Virus record (IMG/VR): IMGVR_UViG_2693429700_000004
Strand: one strand, 5' to 3'
Origin: a virus
Lineage: Duplodnaviria > Heunggongvirae > Uroviricota > Caudoviricetes
Length of the DNA stretch: 12,326 nucleotides
Shown: piece after piece, positions 3,545-12,307 of the stretch
Layout of the letters: each line of letters opens with the position of its first letter
Position numbering within the stretch: position 1 is the first letter of the stretch
Translations under genes and position numbers: made by a program
Notes under the pieces: generated by a model
The model's database searches: none
What the model was told of the DNA's origin: nothing
The model's input: the letters and a program-made list of their open reading frames with translations, nothing else

Positions 3545-3566
3545 TTTTTACCGGGAGAAAAATTTA

Positions 3567-4328
3567 ATGGAGACTGTTTTTGACGCACTGAAAGCAATGG
3601 GAAAAGCCACATCCATAGAACTTGCTGCGCGACTTGATATCAGTCGTGAAGAGGTACTGAACGAGCTGTGGGAACTGAAAAAAGCTGGTTTTGTTGATAA
3701 AACCGCGTACACCTGGCGCGTGGCTGAAAACAACGTTCAGCAGGAACAGTCAGCGCAGGCAGAACTGCCGGAAGAAACCACCACAGCAACAGTAGCGAAA
3801 ATCTCAGAGTGCGATTTAACCGCAACGATTGAACAACGCGGACCACAAACGGCTGATGAGCTGGCTACATTGTTTGATACCACATCACGCAAAGTGTCTT
3901 CAACGCTGGCAATGGCAATCAGCAAAGGTCGTCTGATTCGCGTAAATCAGGGCGGTAAATTTCGTTACTGCATACCGGGCGATAATTTACCAGCAGAGCC
4001 GAAAGCAGCATCGGTAGCGGAAACTGATGGTAAAGCCTTTCCTCAGCCTGCATGTGTTGCGTTACCAGTACAGGAAGCTGCAACACAGGAAGATATTAAA
4101 ACAGAAACGATGGCGGACATTGTGCAGTCGCTGCCATCGTTTACTGCAACGCGATCTGATGATTTGATTTTGCCATCGCTGCATTTGGCAAACCGCGAAC
4201 TGCGTCGGGCGAAAAATCATGTCCAGAAGTGGGAGCGTGTCTGCGCCGCGCTGCGTGAGTTGAACAAGCACAGGGATATTGTACGACAGATTACTGATTC
4301 TTCCCGCCATGTTGCATCGGAAAAGTGA
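3567..4328 (+). CDS. phage protein with two winged-helix-like segments (function unknown)
   Basis: Start chosen at ATG 3567 ([13 protein letters not shown]...) with GGAGA RBS; the track's upstream start at 3516 would overlap the DnaC-like gene. wHTH-like stretches: [30 protein letters not shown] and [29 protein letters not shown]. Confidence 0.55.
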
Positions 4329-4736: not shown

Positions 4737-5206
4737 GTGAGTCGGCTACCATTCTCGACATGTGCTGTGGCAGTCGCATGTTCTGGTTTGATAAGAATGA
4801 CGAACGGGCGATATTTAGCGATATCAGAAAAGAAGAGCACACATTGTGTGATGGACGACGCCTGATTATCAGTCCTGACCTGATAGCAGATTTTCGAGCA
4901 TTACCATTTGCAGACGCATCGTTTCCGGTTGTTGTATTCGACCCTCCGCATCTTGAGCGTGTTGGTGATAACGCCTGGATGGGAAAGAAATATGGACGGC
5001 TGAATAAAGATACCTGGCGAGATGATTTGCGGCAGGGATTTAAAGAAGCCTTTCGTGTGTTGTGCCCACGCGGCGTTCTGATTTTTAAATGGAATGAAAC
5101 GCAAATACCTGTTCGCCAGATATTGGTACTGACCGACAGAAAACCTGTTATCGGTCAACGAACAGGAAAAAACGATAAAACCCACTGGATTATTTTTATG
5201 AAATAG
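4733..5206 (+). CDS. small SAM-dependent methyltransferase, probable phage orphan DNA N6-adenine/N4-cytosine MTase
   Basis: Motif I-like ILDMCCGSR, then catalytic motif IV DPPH (VVVFDPPHL) about 65 residues later. Start is either GTG 4733 (GGAGGTGA RBS, overlaps upstream stop) or ATG 4763. About 150-158 aa with no partner restriction gene. Confidence 0.6.
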   Translation: MSESATILDMCCGSRMFWFDKNDERAIFSDIRKEEHTLCDGRRLIISPDLIADFRALPFADASFPVVVFDPPHLERVGDNAWMGKKYGRLNKDTWRDDLRQGFKEAFRVLCPRGVLIFKWNETQIPVRQILVLTDRKPVIGQRTGKNDKTHWIIFMK

Positions 5207-5454
5207 GCATCCAGTGAGTAGGTTCGTAAGGTTACAGATGCGTATATCTGAATAATTAAATTCAGTTCTGTAAATAAAATTTAATCCTTAACCGGAGGGA
5301 TTCCTGCACCCTCAGAACATCAGGAGACCGCCCGAAAGGGCGGTAATGAAAAATGGCTGAATGAACCAAATGGCTACAAAACACGATTACCGGAATTGAA
5401 ACGGTAGTAGACGATAAATCGTTTGTATGTGATGAAATAGTATTCAAAATCGAT

Positions 5455-5820
5455 GTGGTTAAAAACGTACTTACCGCATTTAAAGTCGCGCTGGTATCGC
5501 TGGAAGCCGAACCGGTGACATGGCGATATCGCTACGTGAGAAAAGGCGTTACGAACTTTCAGGAGAAGCCGTGGGTTGGTGACTGGAAATATGTACCGAC
5601 AAAAGAGGATTGCAACGACAGGCCGAACTATGAAATTCAGGCGTTATTCACGGCCCAGCCTGTGCCACTGACACCCGAAGGATTGATTAAAGCGGTGCGC
5701 TTCTATGAACAGGTTAAGAGTGAAAATCCGCCAGTCGAAACCGGAGCATGGAAAGACGCTGTTGACTGGGTGCTCAAAGAGGCTTGTCAGGCTGTAAACA
5801 TTGGCATCAAAGGAGAGTGA
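5455..5820 (+). CDS. hypothetical protein (121 aa)
   Basis: ORF with GTG start at 5455 (in-frame stop at 5437 limits extension) and a weak RBS. Protein-like composition; stop sits 1 nt before the next gene's start. Confidence 0.45.
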   Translation: MVKNVLTAFKVALVSLEAEPVTWRYRYVRKGVTNFQEKPWVGDWKYVPTKEDCNDRPNYEIQALFTAQPVPLTPEGLIKAVRFYEQVKSENPPVETGAWKDAVDWVLKEACQAVNIGIKGE

Positions 5821-5821
5821 G

Positions 5822-6013
5822 ATGAACGGACAAATCTCAATTGTTCGACCGGGAGCATGTGACGATTGCGAGATACGAATGATTATTCGTCTGGCGATGG
5901 GGAAAACAATAACTGCTCTCATTACTCCAGAAAATCTCGCATTAGCATTAACAGGAAAGTCAGACCTGCCAGTAGAGCTAAAGCTGCGAAATGTTGAGAT
6001 TAAGGTGAAATAG
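5822..6013 (+). CDS. hypothetical small protein (63 aa)
   Basis: ATG 5822 preceded by AAAGGAGAG RBS (MNGQISIVRPGACDDCEIRM...); tightly packed between neighbours. Confidence 0.45.
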   Translation: MNGQISIVRPGACDDCEIRMIIRLAMGKTITALITPENLALALTGKSDLPVELKLRNVEIKVK

Positions 6014-7656: not shown

Positions 7657-7789
7657 ATTCATTACGATATGGGAATTCCCATATCGGGTAAAAACGGTTT
7701 GCGGTAAAGCGAGAGTTAAGTAGAATTGCTGCGGGTGCTTGAGGCTATCTGCCTCGGGCATGCCACCGTAAGGCAGACAGAGAAAAGCC

Positions 7790-7890
7790 CCAGTTAACAT
7801 TACGCGTCCGGCAAGACGCTTAACATTAATCTGAGGCCATATCTATGCTCTACACACGTAGGTTAGCCTCTTACGGACCGAAAGGTCAAG
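7790..7890 (-). ncRNA. sok: predicted Sok-like antisense RNA region (coordinates approximate)
   Basis: Inferred from hok/mok architecture. Minus-strand TTGACC (complement of 7885-7890) is a possible -35; the mok leader contains hairpins and a direct repeat TTAACATTA. Boundaries are not resolved from sequence. Confidence 0.3.
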
Positions 7891-8051
7891 GAGAAGCAGG
7901 CTATGAAGCAGCAAAAGGCGATGTTAATCGCCCTGATCGTCATCTGTTTAACCGTCATAGTGACGGCACTGGTAACGAGGAAAGACCTCTGCGAGGTACG
8001 AATCCGAACCGGTCAGACGGAGGTCGCTGTCTTCGTAGACTACGAATCTGA
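7845..8051 (+). CDS. mok: Mok-like overlapping reading frame (modulation of killing) of the hok locus
   Basis: 68-aa ORF starting upstream of hok and overlapping it in another frame, the canonical hok/mok arrangement. Confidence 0.55.
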   Translation: MLYTRRLASYGPKGQGEAGYEAAKGDVNRPDRHLFNRHSDGTGNEERPLRGTNPNRSDGGRCLRRLRI

Positions 8052-8058
8052 GAAGTAA
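7903..8058 (+). CDS. hok: Hok/Gef-family type I toxin (HokD/RelF-like), 51 aa
   Basis: Translation MKQQKAMLIALIVICLTVIVTALVTRKDLCEVRIRTGQTEVAVFVDYESEK matches the Hok family as I recall it, nearly identical to HokD/RelF except the C-terminal tail. AAGGAGAAG RBS. Not in the ORF track. Confidence 0.85.
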   Translation: MKQQKAMLIALIVICLTVIVTALVTRKDLCEVRIRTGQTEVAVFVDYESEK

Positions 8059-8125
8059 GAGACCAGGCGGGGGAGTAATCTCCCGCCACCTCTGATGTGT
8101 CAGGCATCCTCAACGCACCCGCACT

Positions 8126-8150
8126 AAACCCGCTTCGGCGGGTTTTTTGT
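8126..8150 (+). terminator. intrinsic terminator ending the hok transcript
   Basis: ACCCGC-TTCG-GCGGGT hairpin followed by TTTTTTG. A second 9-bp stem with GTAA loop (8066-8087) lies just after the hok stop but has no T-run. Confidence 0.6.
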
Positions 8151-9217: not shown

Positions 9218-9507
9218 TGGTGGATTTACGTAAAGCGGCGCGGGGGCAGATGTGCACCGTCAGAATTCCTGGCTACTGCAATCACGATCCGGAAACGTCT
9301 GTGCTGGCGCATTACCGACTGGCGGGAACGTGCGGAACAGCGATAAAGCCACACGATATGCAGGCAGCGATTGCCTGTAGCTCGTGCCACGATTTAATCG
9401 ACGGGCGGGTAAAAACCGGCGATTACACCAAAGAAGAATTACGCCTGATGCATGCAGAAGGTGTTTTTCGCACACAAGAAATCTGGAGAAAGGAGGGATA
9501 TTTATGA
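9217..9507 (+). CDS. ybcO: DUF1364 / YbcO-like Cys/His-rich putative nuclease
   Basis: 96-aa ORF with spaced Cys/His residues (C13, C21, H23, C54, C57, H58); start overlaps the upstream stop (TAATG). Size and position match ybcO. Confidence 0.6.
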   Translation: MVDLRKAARGQMCTVRIPGYCNHDPETSVLAHYRLAGTCGTAIKPHDMQAAIACSSCHDLIDGRVKTGDYTKEELRLMHAEGVFRTQEIWRKEGYL

Positions 9508-10058
9508 TTTACCCAACGAATACAGGAAAAAGCGGAGAACACCTTCGTCTCACCACGCTGGAAAGTGTCTGGATTCAGGGAAAACTACGTATGTGGGGGC
9601 GCTGGTCGTATATTGGCGGCGGTAAGACGGGAAATATGTTTAACCAGTTGCTGACCTCTAAAAAGCTAACAAAAACGGCAATTAATGAGGCGCTCCGGAG
9701 GATGAAAAAAGCAGGTCTGGACAAACCTGAACTTGAGGCTTTTTTGCGGGATATGATCAACGGCAAGCAAAAAAGCTGGCTGGTGCATTGTACTGATGCA
9801 GAGGCGTTATGCATTGATCGGGTGATTAGTGAAGTGCTGGCAGAACACCCAGGATTGATTTGTATCCTCCGGCAAAGATATGAAGGGCGGGGGATGAGTA
9901 AGCGCAAAATGGCTGAATTGCTAAATGATGCACACCCTGAGTGGTGTTTTCGGACGTGCTGCAGTCGGGTAGATGTATGGCTAAATCTTGCTGAATATAT
10001 GCTCTATCTGCCGATGCGTGATGCATTCTCTTCCGGGTATTTAAAAACTGTCTGTTGA
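9504..10058 (+). CDS. late-gene antitermination protein Q-like
   Basis: ATG 9504 with AGGAGGG RBS (track start 9384 overlaps the previous gene and is unlikely). Last nin gene; a strong promoter overlaps its stop and a short terminated leader follows, the pR'/tR' arrangement. Contains a Cys cluster (CFRTCCS). Assignment is mainly positional. Confidence 0.55.
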   Translation: MIYPTNTGKSGEHLRLTTLESVWIQGKLRMWGRWSYIGGGKTGNMFNQLLTSKKLTKTAINEALRRMKKAGLDKPELEAFLRDMINGKQKSWLVHCTDAEALCIDRVISEVLAEHPGLICILRQRYEGRGMSKRKMAELLNDAHPEWCFRTCCSRVDVWLNLAEYMLYLPMRDAFSSGYLKTVC

Positions 10059-10084
10059 CTCAATCTGTTATCCGGGGCTATATT
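10055..10084 (+). promoter_or_regulatory. pR'-like late promoter
   Basis: TTGACT (10055-10060), 18-bp spacer, TATATT (10079-10084); overlaps the stop codon of the Q-like gene. Confidence 0.45.
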
Positions 10085-10146
10085 CCTCACGCGCCAGCAA
10101 AATCTGGCGTCGGGATTAGGAACCCCGGATAGAGACCGCGACAGAC

Positions 10147-10170
10147 ACACGCCGCGAGCGTGTTTTTTAT
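10147..10170 (+). terminator. tR'-like intrinsic terminator about 80 nt downstream of the late promoter
   Basis: ACACGC-CGCGA-GCGTGT hairpin followed by TTTTTTATT. Confidence 0.55.
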
Positions 10171-10331
10171 TGTCGTATGCACGCGCACATCTGAATTATG
10201 GTGGGGCGTATGGGGGAGCTGAAAAGCTCGCCGGTTGGTTTCCCGGTAGTTCCTAACCCTGTACGTCTCACCACCCGATGATTAGGAACCTGACGGTGGT
10301 GATGGTTTAGAAACCACCAGAGGGCGTCATT

Positions 10332-10913
10332 ATGACAACTCAAATTTCTGTTGAAACTCTCTCCCCGATCACCCATAACCAGATTCCTGTTATTACCACC
10401 GAACTTTTGGCGCAGTTGTACGGTGCTGGAGTTAAGAACATTCAAAATAACTACGCCAGAAATGCTGAGCGCTTTATTGAAGGAAAGCATTTTTTCAAAG
10501 TGGCTGGCGATGCCCTGAAAAATTTGCGGGTAGCTTTAAACTACTCACAAAATTTGCAACCATCTTTAAGAGGGTTACAAATTTCCCCGAAAGCCCGCTC
10601 CCTCATCCTCTGGACAGAACGCGGAGCAGCCCGTCATGCCAAAATGCTGGAAACCGATCAGGCGTGGGATGTGTTCGAAAAGCTGGAAGACTGCTATTTC
10701 AGACAAAAGGATCCGTCAGCGCCAGTTTCATGCCAGAAAAGTTACGACACGCGAGTTCTCTGTTATCAGAGAGGCGGTGTCACTGTTTCCACAATTCAGT
10801 TACGGGATGATGATATTGTTATTTCCCTTGAGTCATGGCTGGAACTGGCGAGAGCCAATGGTTGGTTTGTTGTTCGCAGAGATAAACTGGTGGAAAGGTT
10901 GATGCAGCTTTAA
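10332..10913 (+). CDS. ORF6N-domain (antirepressor-like) protein
   Basis: 193-aa ORF with AGAGGG RBS; N-terminal segment TELLAQLYGAGVKNIQNNYARNAERFIEGKHFFKV resembles the ORF6N/antirepressor N-domain as I recall it. Confidence 0.55.
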   Translation: MTTQISVETLSPITHNQIPVITTELLAQLYGAGVKNIQNNYARNAERFIEGKHFFKVAGDALKNLRVALNYSQNLQPSLRGLQISPKARSLILWTERGAARHAKMLETDQAWDVFEKLEDCYFRQKDPSAPVSCQKSYDTRVLCYQRGGVTVSTIQLRDDDIVISLESWLELARANGWFVVRRDKLVERLMQL

Positions 10914-11011
10914 AAAAGTTCTTGCATTTTTGCACATAAACTGCTTCAATTCCTGTTTGCTTCGCAAAGCTGTATCGCGAGGCGAAACGCAAGTTTTTTT
11001 CGCACAAGGAA

Positions 11012-11034
11012 GCCACCGGAAGGTGGTTTTTTTG
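11012..11034 (+). terminator. intrinsic terminator
   Basis: CCACC-GGAA-GGTGG hairpin followed by T7; a weaker hairpin plus T-run lies just upstream at about 10985-11003. Confidence 0.55.
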
Positions 11035-11156
11035 TGTCCGTAATATACAGCAGCGCAATAAATTCGCTGGTGGTTATTAATACCGTTCTTTCAGCTTGCT
11101 GGCTTTTTCGACAAGAGTTATTGGTATGTCACGTTAACCGGAAAGGGTAAAAAGAC

Positions 11157-11354
11157 ATGCTGAAACAGCAGGATATGACAGAAACCGCCAGAGTTGTGTT
11201 TGATGAATTAAGCGTTACCGAACCGGCGACAGTCGGGGAGATTGCGCAGAATACTTACCTTTCACGCGAACGCTGCCAGTTAATACTGACCCAGCTGGTT
11301 ATGGCGGGTCTGGCAGACTATCAGTGCGGTTGTTACAGACGCATTCAGTCCTGA
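11157..11354 (+). CDS. small putative winged-helix DNA-binding protein (65 aa)
   Basis: ORF MLKQQDMTETARVVFDELSVTEPATVGEIAQNTYLSRERCQLILTQLVMAGLADY with an HTH-like core; weak RBS. Confidence 0.4.
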   Translation: MLKQQDMTETARVVFDELSVTEPATVGEIAQNTYLSRERCQLILTQLVMAGLADYQCGCYRRIQS

Positions 11355-11489: not shown

Positions 11490-12203
11490 ATGGCTGTTGT
11501 CTGTTCAGTTATCATGGTTTGCTCCCCAATTAATATTTTTCTTGAAAAGGATACGTTGTCACTTAAGCCAGGCTCAGTCGTTCTGGCCACCAAATGCATC
11601 AGGGAGCTTTTCCTTATGCATTATGGCAAAGTTAAAATTGTCGATATAAGCGAATCCGTCGTAAGTCAATATCTGGAAAGTCAGCATAAGCTGACGAGGA
11701 CTCGTCTGACTGACATTCCGCTTTACCTGTTGCTGGAACCCAACAATCCTGCGTTGGCTGCGGCTTTAATTACCAGCCAGGGATTTTCCGGAGAGGTCAC
11801 GGATATGTTTCTTATGATGGCCTGCCTGTCTCTGTTTGAAACAGATGAACGGATGTCATTGTTTTTAAGTGGATGTTTATCCAGCATAAGTGCCAAAGTC
11901 AGGGCGATAATTCAGACAGATATATCAGCAAGCTGGACGCTTGGTGCGATTGCTCTACAGTTGCATATGAGTGAGAGTTTGTTAAAGACAAAACTGAAAA
12001 ATGAAGGGGGCATGTTCAGTCGCTTGTTGCTGGAAGAGCGGATGCGTGTTGCTGTAAATATGTTATGTTCCCGGCATGGATATGGACAGGCTGTAGCAGA
12101 AAAATGCGGTTATTCAAGCAGGTCCTACTTTATTTCTGTATTTCACCGCTATTATGGCTTCCCGCCAGACAGATATGTATCCAGGCAAGGGCTTGATTAT
12201 TGA
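11490..12203 (+). CDS. AraC/XylS-family transcriptional regulator (AppY/YdeO/GadX/PatE-like)
   Basis: 237-aa ORF whose C-terminal HTH region (YGQAVAEKCGYSSRSYFISVFHRYYGFPPDRY) has the AraC signature, and whose N-terminus (MAVVCSVIMVCS) recalls AppY. AT-rich gene and flanks suggest a horizontally acquired moron. Confidence 0.8.
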   Translation: MAVVCSVIMVCSPINIFLEKDTLSLKPGSVVLATKCIRELFLMHYGKVKIVDISESVVSQYLESQHKLTRTRLTDIPLYLLLEPNNPALAAALITSQGFSGEVTDMFLMMACLSLFETDERMSLFLSGCLSSISAKVRAIIQTDISASWTLGAIALQLHMSESLLKTKLKNEGGMFSRLLLEERMRVAVNMLCSRHGYGQAVAEKCGYSSRSYFISVFHRYYGFPPDRYVSRQGLDY

Positions 12204-12231
12204 TTTTCATCTGATTATTATTTTTTGGCTC

Positions 12232-12307
12232 GGCCCTTTAGCTCAGTGGTGAGAGCGAGCGACTCATAATCGCCAGGTCGCTGGTTCAAATCCAGCAAGG
12301 GCCACCA
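12232..12307 (+). tRNA. tRNA with CAU anticodon, ileX/ileY-like (tRNA-Ile2, lysidine) and diverged from the host copies; tRNA-Met not formally excluded
   Basis: 76-nt cloverleaf: acceptor stem GGCCCTT/AAGGGCC, D-loop AGCTCAGTGG, anticodon loop CTCATAA, T-arm GGTTCAAATCC, encoded CCA end. Resembles E. coli ileX/ileY as I recall it, with compensatory stem changes. Confidence 0.85.

Follow-up and report, generated by a model that had tools for sequence, protein, structure and literature searches.

In phages P1 and P7 the mRNA repressed by the C4 RNA is also its source: C4 is excised from the leader of that mRNA (by RNase P in P1), represses the ant gene in trans and occurs in specificity variants that act as heteroimmunity types. 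The immI region of these phages comprises the C4 antisense RNA with the sites a1/b1 and a2/b2 and controls the icd-ant genes (Rfam RF01695, RF03163; PMC12197685). Here we analyze a putative relative of this system in a stretch of 12,326 nucleotides assigned to a virus of the Caudoviricetes (IMG/VR record IMGVR_UViG_2693429700_000004; the whole stretch is called the window), which belongs to a Rac-like lambdoid prophage in Escherichia coli. We conclude with good confidence that positions 10055 to ~10915 make up a complete unit for antirepressor control, a cassette of the P1/P7 immI (C4) type that has its homolog in isrK-orf45-anrP of prophage Gifsy-1 and is situated between a gene of the Q21 antiterminator family and the late promoter of that Q.

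The Gifsy-1 locus of Salmonella, organized in the order antQ - isrK - orf45/STnc1160 - anrP - isrJ, is the closest described system (Hershko-Shalev et al. 2016, PMC4825925). It has been shown there by promoter deletion and lacZ fusions that the isrK promoter drives both IsrK and anrP. A fraction of the transcripts reads through into orf45-anrP; this read-through RNA is translationally silent and is activated in trans by IsrK, which binds Hfq (PMC4825925). The product AnrP induces the prophage and the antQ operon, and a processed RNA, STnc1160, accumulates downstream of IsrK at the C4 position (PMC4825925). IsrK and C4 have been given as separate systems in a 2025 review (PMC12197685). The cassette studied here is an E. 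coli member of this characterized locus and not a new class; what we add, as refinements, is the link between IsrK and C4 and the correct placement of the late promoter pR'.

A previous reading of the letters of the window (the sequence-only reading) had drawn attention to a segment which is 100% identical to chromosomal sequences of strains O145, O157 and ML35. It described a Q-like gene followed by the late promoter of its product, a short terminated leader and a hairpin-rich region. The features as we now define them are as follows.

9504-10058, plus strand: gene of a predicted Q-type antiterminator of 184 aa (DUF1133; distant member of the Q21/Q933W family).
10055-10084, plus strand: predicted sigma-70 promoter of the PisrK type (TTGACT at 10055-10060, 18-nt spacer, TATATT at 10079-10084).
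10091-10169, plus strand: predicted IsrK-type small RNA (sRNA) of ~78 nt (Rfam isrK match, fold and covariation).
10194-10278, plus strand: predicted C4-type antisense RNA of the P1/P7 type (Rfam C4, 67 bits).
10198-10281, plus strand: short upstream open reading frame (uORF) of 27 codons within the C4 RNA, the counterpart of Gifsy-1 orf45.
10282-10289, plus strand: b2, the predicted target of b' in the antirepressor mRNA leader (hairpin loop; pairing covariation).
10310-10316 and 10320-10325, plus strand: a2 (GAAACCA), the predicted target of a', and the Shine-Dalgarno sequence AGAGGG, both in the leader of the antirepressor gene.
10332-10913, plus strand: antirepressor gene, homolog of AnrP with an ORF6N domain (Pfam, PHROG, identity to AnrP).
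10921-10949, plus strand: pR'-type late promoter, the proposed cognate of the DUF1133 Q (TTGCAT, 17-nt spacer TTTTGCACATAAACTGC, TTCAAT).
10956-11033, plus strand: short terminated leader resembling lambda 6S RNA (fold; homologous leaders in loci devoid of the cassette).

RNA families were identified with the Rfam covariance models, and promoters and terminators with consensus scans whose yield was compared to expected counts. The scans returned four promoter-like sites against 5.1 expected and nine terminator-like sites against 3.7 expected; taken by themselves they do not rise above chance, so the case rests on covariance-model homology and on covariation. For the latter, cassettes were gathered from Shiga toxin (Stx) phages, Gifsy-like prophages and DUF1133 prophages, and 17 distinct ones were aligned; an 18th, from the Stx2a phage ArgO145 (L169), was compared besides this alignment. 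Matches below the Rfam thresholds were dropped (isrK-like and rsmX at 8061-8148, Trp_leader at 698-784 and Plastid-ycf2 on a tRNA gene).

The promoter noted in the sequence-only reading is plainly there: it matches the consensus at 10 of 12 positions, is kept in all 17 aligned cassettes, and its -35 hexamer contains the TGA stop codon of the Q-like gene, an overlap found also in Gifsy-1. The intrinsic terminator which that reading placed about 60 nt further on is borne out as well (stem ACACGC/GCGTGT at 10147-10163, followed by T6, 10147-10169). The isrK model (RF01394) matches 10091-10168 over its full length 1-77 (69.4 bits, E 1.8e-13, gathering score 50), and the c4-a1b1 model matches 10078-10131 (47.8 bits, E 1e-9, gathering score 46.7). 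Hairpin 1 of the predicted RNA (10091-10110) is the CGCCAG/CTGGCG hairpin already seen in the earlier reading, with arms at 10092-10097 and 10104-10109; hairpin 2 (10111-10127) presents in its loop the b1 sequence UUAGGAAC (10116-10123). Both are 100% paired across the aligned cassettes. The features of the IsrK family are thus present, namely the promoter, the intrinsic terminator, a b1 complementary to a b' downstream and an ORF6N gene on the 3' side, and on the strength of this homology the promoter 10055-10084 and the terminator 10147-10169 make a predicted sRNA of the IsrK type.

An inverted repeat was reported to bracket this promoter; it exists, although it is of 9 bp (TATCCGGGG at 10069-10077 and CCCCGGATA at 10123-10131) and not of 8 bp. 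We rejected it as a functional stem, as its left arm precedes the point where IsrK starts and its arms are nearly invariant and offer no proper test by covariation. The promoter spacer TTATCCGGGGC (10064-10078) is near-invariant in all cassettes and complementary to the 3' arm of IsrK hairpin 2 (10123-10131), and the two spacer changes in the Sakai-type cassettes (Sakai, L036) each yield a G-U pair instead of a mismatch. The left arm would be contained in RNA only when the transcript comes from upstream, and polymerases arriving that way through the Q gene would encounter the IsrK terminator. Control of the promoter by LexA was considered and rejected, since no LexA box with up to one mismatch was found near it. 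In ArgO145 (L169, ~2480-2505) IsrK hairpin 1 is swapped for another hairpin, ACGGUC...GACCGU.

The hairpin-rich region downstream of the terminator was proposed earlier to hold either the qut site of the Q protein or a small RNA, and it is the second suggestion that holds, for the region is a predicted C4 antisense RNA of the P1/P7 type. The C4 model (RF01695) scores 67 bits here (E 1.5e-11, gathering score 45), and the minimum free energy fold (-42.9 kcal/mol, z = -4.5 against shuffled sequences) is identical to the model structure. The stems listed in the sequence-only reading find their places in it: GGTGG/CCACC belongs to the closing stem of 17 bp (10199-10215 with 10257-10273), and GAGCU-GAAA-AGCUC is hairpin 1 (10216-10229). 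The loop of hairpin 2 is a' (UGGUUUC, 10236-10242), and b' (GUUCCUAA, in DNA GTTCCTAA) is single-stranded at 10249-10256. The repeated GATTAGGAACC of that reading likewise acquires a meaning, its two copies being b1 and b2: TTAGGAAC occurs at 10116-10123, in IsrK, and again at 10282-10289, with its complement at 10249-10256. A hairpin formed by TCACCACC (10268-10275) and GGTGGTGA (10295-10302) displays b2 and competes with the C4 closing stem; it is 99.3% paired across the cassettes. The a2 sequence ends four bases ahead of the Shine-Dalgarno sequence. The intact gene that follows (193 codons) encodes a protein with an ORF6N domain (Pfam, 69 bits) which matches PHROG 2379 'anti-repressor' with 303 bits and is 54% identical to AnrP of Gifsy-1 (E 3e-67).

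Covariation in the 17 cassettes agrees with this structure and with the proposed pairings. The three C4 helices are 100% paired and contain compensatory changes; in the whole tested structure (C4 helices and IsrK hairpins) 14 pairs are changed on both sides, 9 of these 14 in the C4 helices, whereas slid controls reach only 33-46%. The pairing of b1 with b' is kept at 99.2%, with four of eight pairs doubly changed, and that of b' with b2 at 100%, with changes on both sides in four of eight pairs (18 cells); the slid controls gave 23-42% for b'-b2 and 15-43% for the two interactions taken together. Five b types are found in the alignment (GGCGU, GGAAC, AGGAAC, AGCAC and CGCAG). The sixth, CGAAC, occurs in ArgO145, which is 94% identical over the aligned region and has all three b sites switched together. 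The sites b1, b' and b2 thus change in concert through six specificities in 18 cassette variants. In the window a single extra base, an insertion not shared by the other cassettes, sets the b type apart from that of its nearest relative, at b1, b' and b2 alike. The a' loops comprise eight distinct recognition words, and in the last 22 nt before the ATG of its own ant gene each of them finds a run of 6-8 Watson-Crick partners, against a mean of 4.3 for non-cognate combinations. One viral contig (L028) carries two cassettes (289-588 and 3551-3850) which share the b type GGCGU but have UUUCCGUAC and AUGUUUCGA, respectively, as their a types; two switches that partly cross-react can therefore reside on one element.

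The window and Gifsy-1 are alike in several respects. Their noncoding sequences are 80.6% identical from exactly the -35 hexamer to the start of ant, both give the same trio of Rfam matches (isrK, c4-a1b1 and C4), which is present also in phage VT2-Sakai, and in both a Q gene, the cassette and the Q's own short late leader follow in the same order. In the numbering of the Gifsy-1 study IsrK starts at 5037 of our Gifsy-1 sequence (L008), 7 nt past the -10 hexamer, and A107 of orf45 lies at 5143; the compensatory mutants G28-C162 and G31-C159 then map exactly onto b1 and b', and 'helix d-II' of that paper is the C4 closing stem. The two loci differ in the upstream Q (DUF1133, Q21-like, in the window and PF06323, Q82-like, in Gifsy-1), in b (UUAGGAAC versus UUGGCGU), in a (UGGUUUC/GAAACCA versus CGGUGAU/AUCACCG), in the uORF (27 codons without overlap versus 45 codons with an AUGA overlap) and in the late leader after ant (DUF1133 type versus IsrJ).

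The difference in the uORF bears on a model which takes the Gifsy-1 account literally: the uORF is translated, IsrK opens its ribosome-binding site and the ribosomes re-initiate on ant, the C4-like fold serving only to hide the uORF start. In Gifsy-1 tagged orf45 is translated and mutations of its start codon or early stops lower the activation of anrP by IsrK (PMC4825925), which together with the AUGA overlap speaks for such coupling, as does the presence of the uORF ATG (10198) in the 5' strand of the C4 closing stem in 17 of the 18 cassettes. That ATG is, however, needed anyway as a part of the stem. The uORF of the window stops 50 nt ahead of the ant ATG, and across the 18 cassettes it varies between 14 and more than 47 codons, it may end as far as 85 nt upstream of ant or only within ant, its peptide sequence is unconserved and the AUGA overlap is confined to the Gifsy-1 type. 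The conserved RNA pairing, including that of a' with a2 over the ribosome-binding site of ant, moreover plays no part in this model, which we consider improbable.

A second alternative is that of the sequence-only reading, which takes 10055-10084 for the pR' belonging to the DUF1133 Q, the ~78-nt RNA for a 6S-like leader and 10147-10169 for the terminator tR', and which places qut in the downstream hairpins. Sy et al. 2020 likewise mention IsrK as the product of an antitermination-regulated promoter, which amounts to the same interpretation. It finds some support in the DUF1133 loci. Among 80 related loci about 50, with a protein of 180 aa, are devoid of the cassette, and in about 30, with a protein of 184 aa, the isrK cassette follows. 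The arrangement in the window, with the promoter over the Q stop and the terminator ~60 nt on, is exactly like that of the cassette-less loci, and the last ~35 residues of Q travel with the type of promoter downstream. The two classes hardly differ before about residue 148, their divergence being limited to these last residues, so that a recombination joint lies within the Q gene (9950-10058 of the window compared to L003 and L042). A Klebsiella homolog has the C-terminal motif of the window type, SRVDVWLNLAE, and yet another promoter.

The surroundings of the cassette in other phages argue against this alternative. In Stx phages ninE is succeeded by the identical promoter-IsrK-C4-ant unit, ~2.5 kb upstream of their own Q and pR', and this unit stands after an unrelated Q of the Q82 type in Gifsy-1; the promoter and terminator at 10055-10170 are thus assigned, on this distribution, to a mobile antirepressor cassette and not to this Q. 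Immediately behind the cassette-less DUF1133 genes come a promoter (TTGATT, 17-nt spacer, TTCAAT), a leader with GCTTCGCAAAGCTGTATCGCGAGGCG and a terminator, and then tRNA or holin genes. In the Klebsiella, Providencia and Edwardsiella phages, too, the gene has a promoter, a short leader and a terminator right behind it, ahead of the late genes. A nucleotide profile of this unit built for nhmmer matches the window at 10913-11039, right after the antirepressor stop codon (64 bits, E 3e-18), and the same place in all DUF1133 loci that bear the cassette. It has no significant match to the promoter 10055-10084, the nearest being one with E 4.9 over the terminator (10143-10173). A strict pattern search of the window for the DUF1133-type promoter had given nothing convincing, a negative that in view of the profile result is a matter of sensitivity. 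The binding element of Q21 lies within -40 to -1 of its pR' (10.1101/651190), which likewise speaks against this alternative. We judge it quite unlikely, even more so than the model built on uORF translation, that 10055-10170 is the late unit of this Q.

The lambda 6S-like unit of the DUF1133 Q is, we propose, the intact one at 10921-11033. Its leader is predicted to fold into a hairpin GCUUCGC...GCGAGGC and a terminator CCACC-GGAA-GGUGG followed by U7 (11012-11033), with a minimum free energy of -34.6 kcal/mol (z = -4.5); the hexamers of its promoter and the start of the leader are putative assignments. Parts of the spacer and leader motifs recur in the phages of Providencia and Edwardsiella although the identity of their Q proteins is no more than 33-44%, and the conserved spacer TTTTGCACATAAACTGC and the leader motif GCTTCGCAAAGCTG are candidates for the direct-repeat Q-binding element or the sigma-dependent pause element expected of this Q family. 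It is this unit, and not 10055-10170, that resembles lambda pR'-6S RNA-tR', the pR' of phage 21 and StxS (PMC7547250; 10.1101/651190) in having a promoter linked to Q, a terminated leader of ~80 nt and then the late genes, with the difference that in the window a cassette of 860 bp sets Q and its proposed pR' apart. Gifsy-1 offers a parallel. Relatives of AntQ without the cassette are followed directly by a promoter-leader-terminator of the 82 type, and in Gifsy-1 such a unit lies right after anrP (L008 5841-5965, E 1e-38) and contains IsrJ (5873-5947, Rfam 100 bits). As IsrJ coincides with the unit that elsewhere directly follows Q82-family genes, it would seem to be for Gifsy-1 what 6S RNA is for lambda, the leader of the late promoter. 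A Gifsy-1 transcript of ~910 nt reported with an isrJ probe has the length expected if it began where IsrK starts and ended at the terminator of IsrJ (5037-5947).

The gene upstream of the cassette had been called Q-like in the sequence-only reading, and its product is indeed a predicted Q-type antiterminator related to that of phage 21. The protein scores 354 bits against DUF1133 and, marginally, 27.5 bits (cut-off 26) against PF06530, the Q21/Q933W family (10.1101/651190), and it is matched by PHROG 753 'anti-termination protein Q-like'. The suggested comparison of profiles with known Q proteins yielded Q21 in the PDB (6jnx/6p18, E 6e-8), covering residues 6-46 and 57-152 of Q21, i.e. nearly its whole length. 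All of the best eight Foldseek matches in the PDB are Q21 (TM 0.46-0.64) and nothing else among the structural matches is credible; owing to a shallow alignment the AlphaFold model is of low confidence (pLDDT only 59), and these fold matches only back the profile result. The hhalign comparison with Q933W was weak (probability 19%). The protein was expected to escape searches with lambda Q, and the lambda-Q models in Pfam indeed gave no match, DUF1133 and PF06530 being the only ones with E <= 0.01; it is found, however, by PF06530, PHROG 753 and the PDB profiles. Homology to AntQ of Gifsy-1 (PF06323, Q82 type) was rejected as no similarity was detected in the comparisons. DUF1133 has been tagged 'Q antiterminator HHPred' in one survey of Stx phages (PMC8136144), and in five other phages that we examined, from E. 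coli, Klebsiella, Providencia and Edwardsiella, the DUF1133 gene occupies the Q position immediately 5' of the lysis genes.

Returning to the antirepressor cassette, we have established its homology, its folds, the three-way covariation and where the cognate pR' unit lies. Work on Gifsy-1 has established that the promoter is active, that some transcripts read through, that b1 pairs with b', that IsrK activates in trans and that the antirepressor brings about induction (PMC4825925). For this prophage we infer repression through a'/a2 and b'/b2 as well as excision of C4. The promoter 10055-10084 would fire without Q, and the majority of transcripts would end at 10147-10169 to give IsrK of ~78 nt, with b1 shown in a hairpin loop. 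A minority would read through and include the C4-type RNA 10194-10278, whose a' and b' would pair with a2, beside the Shine-Dalgarno sequence, and with b2, so that translation of the antirepressor stays off. Having the same sequence as b2, b1 in cis and free IsrK in trans may compete for b', and a rise of IsrK relative to C4 would switch the antirepressor on. The antirepressor would then inactivate the prophage repressor. The candidate for the latter is a divergent gene on the minus strand (754-1173) that codes for an HTH_3 domain alone, without a peptidase or self-cleavage domain, which fits induction through an antirepressor and not through RecA-stimulated cleavage. Early rightward transcription would next yield Q, which probably loads at 10921-10949 and carries RNA polymerase past the terminator 11012-11033 into the tRNA and lysis region.

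Several points weigh against this interpretation. The authors of the Gifsy-1 study attribute activation chiefly to orf45 being translated in coupling with anrP (PMC4825925), and extra STnc1160/orf45 RNA enhanced the toxicity of IsrK and did not relieve it (PMC4825925), which a simple picture of C4 as a repressor does not predict. Pairing of a1 with a' in the manner of P1 finds no support and was set aside, as 16 of the 17 aligned cassettes have one and the same loop in IsrK hairpin 1 ('a1') but about eight forms of a' occur. Finally, the hexamers TTGCAT and TTCAAT of the proposed late promoter match the consensus weakly and were not called by the promoter scan.

That a cryptic prophage merely retains the cassette as a relic without function, as the IS3 insertions and pseudogenes within this prophage in the closest genomes might suggest, is extremely unlikely, since promoter, terminator, C4 helices, b sites, a'/a2 and the antirepressor frame are all preserved and at least 15 complete genomes contain the region with 100% identity.

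As in P1/P7, the predicted antisense RNA of the cassette lies within the leader of its target mRNA (from which it would be excised), its a' and b' are complementary to sites near a ribosome-binding site of the antirepressor operon, a duplicate site is found upstream on the same transcript, and there are specificity variants. Unlike P1/P7, the window has an intrinsic terminator between a1b1 and C4 which would release the upstream sites as the IsrK sRNA, and only b1 tracks b', the 'a1' loop not following a'. The ribosome-binding site which a2 adjoins is that of ant itself and not of a gene like icd. The cassette resides in a lambdoid and not in a plasmid prophage, and control of the promoter by a repressor, as in P1, is not evident in the window.

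The module would decide on the production of antirepressor and so on the waking of a prophage whose repressor is non-cleavable. As a possible, though rather doubtful, extension the C4/IsrK cassettes of lambdoid prophages sharing one cell may constitute a combinatorial heteroimmunity code, with at least six b types and at least eight a types seen. If true, IsrK, which shows only b1, could switch on the antirepressor of a co-resident prophage with the same b type and would be blind to others, and a network of cross-induction and cross-immunity would be set by a few bases, near-identical cassettes being carried by Stx-converting phages. Related cassettes occur in the Shiga-toxin phages of O157 and O145, so the specificity types may bear on the induction of toxin phages and on prophage cross-talk. 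If our placement of the late unit is true, the published passing view of IsrK as an RNA from an antitermination-regulated late promoter would be wrong, and leaders of the IsrJ type would take that role. For annotation, IsrK, c4-a1b1, C4 and orf45/STnc1160 are to be regarded as parts of one device and DUF1133 proteins as late regulators of the Q21 type, and a promoter and terminator directly after a Q gene are not necessarily the pR' of that Q.

In O145, O157 and ML35 the gene order is DUF1367, DUF1364/YbcO, DUF1133, the ORF6N protein, small genes and tRNAs, followed by TerB, a carbohydrate esterase, holin and lysozyme. The repressor-like gene faces a Cro-like helix-turn-helix (HTH) gene and a gene of the YdaT family (1270-1512 and 1509-1931). 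A toxin-antitoxin locus of the hok/sok type is found at 7733-7905 (Rfam sok, 105 bits), where frames of the size of mok and hok (7845-8051 and 7903-8058) overlap one another. Downstream of the pR'-type leader lie a gene for 65 aa (11157-11354, PHROG 331) and a gene for an AraC-type HTH protein (11490-12203, PHROG 1450); in strain RM9872 an IS3 element separates the former from a shorter form (196 aa) of the latter. The stretch 12193-12304 contains a tRNA gene (72.5 bits, anticodon loop CUCAUAA), immediately preceded by a promoter-like TTGATT, 17-nt spacer, TATTAT, and in related genomes this tRNA is the first of an Ile-Arg-Arg cluster, as in Stx phages.

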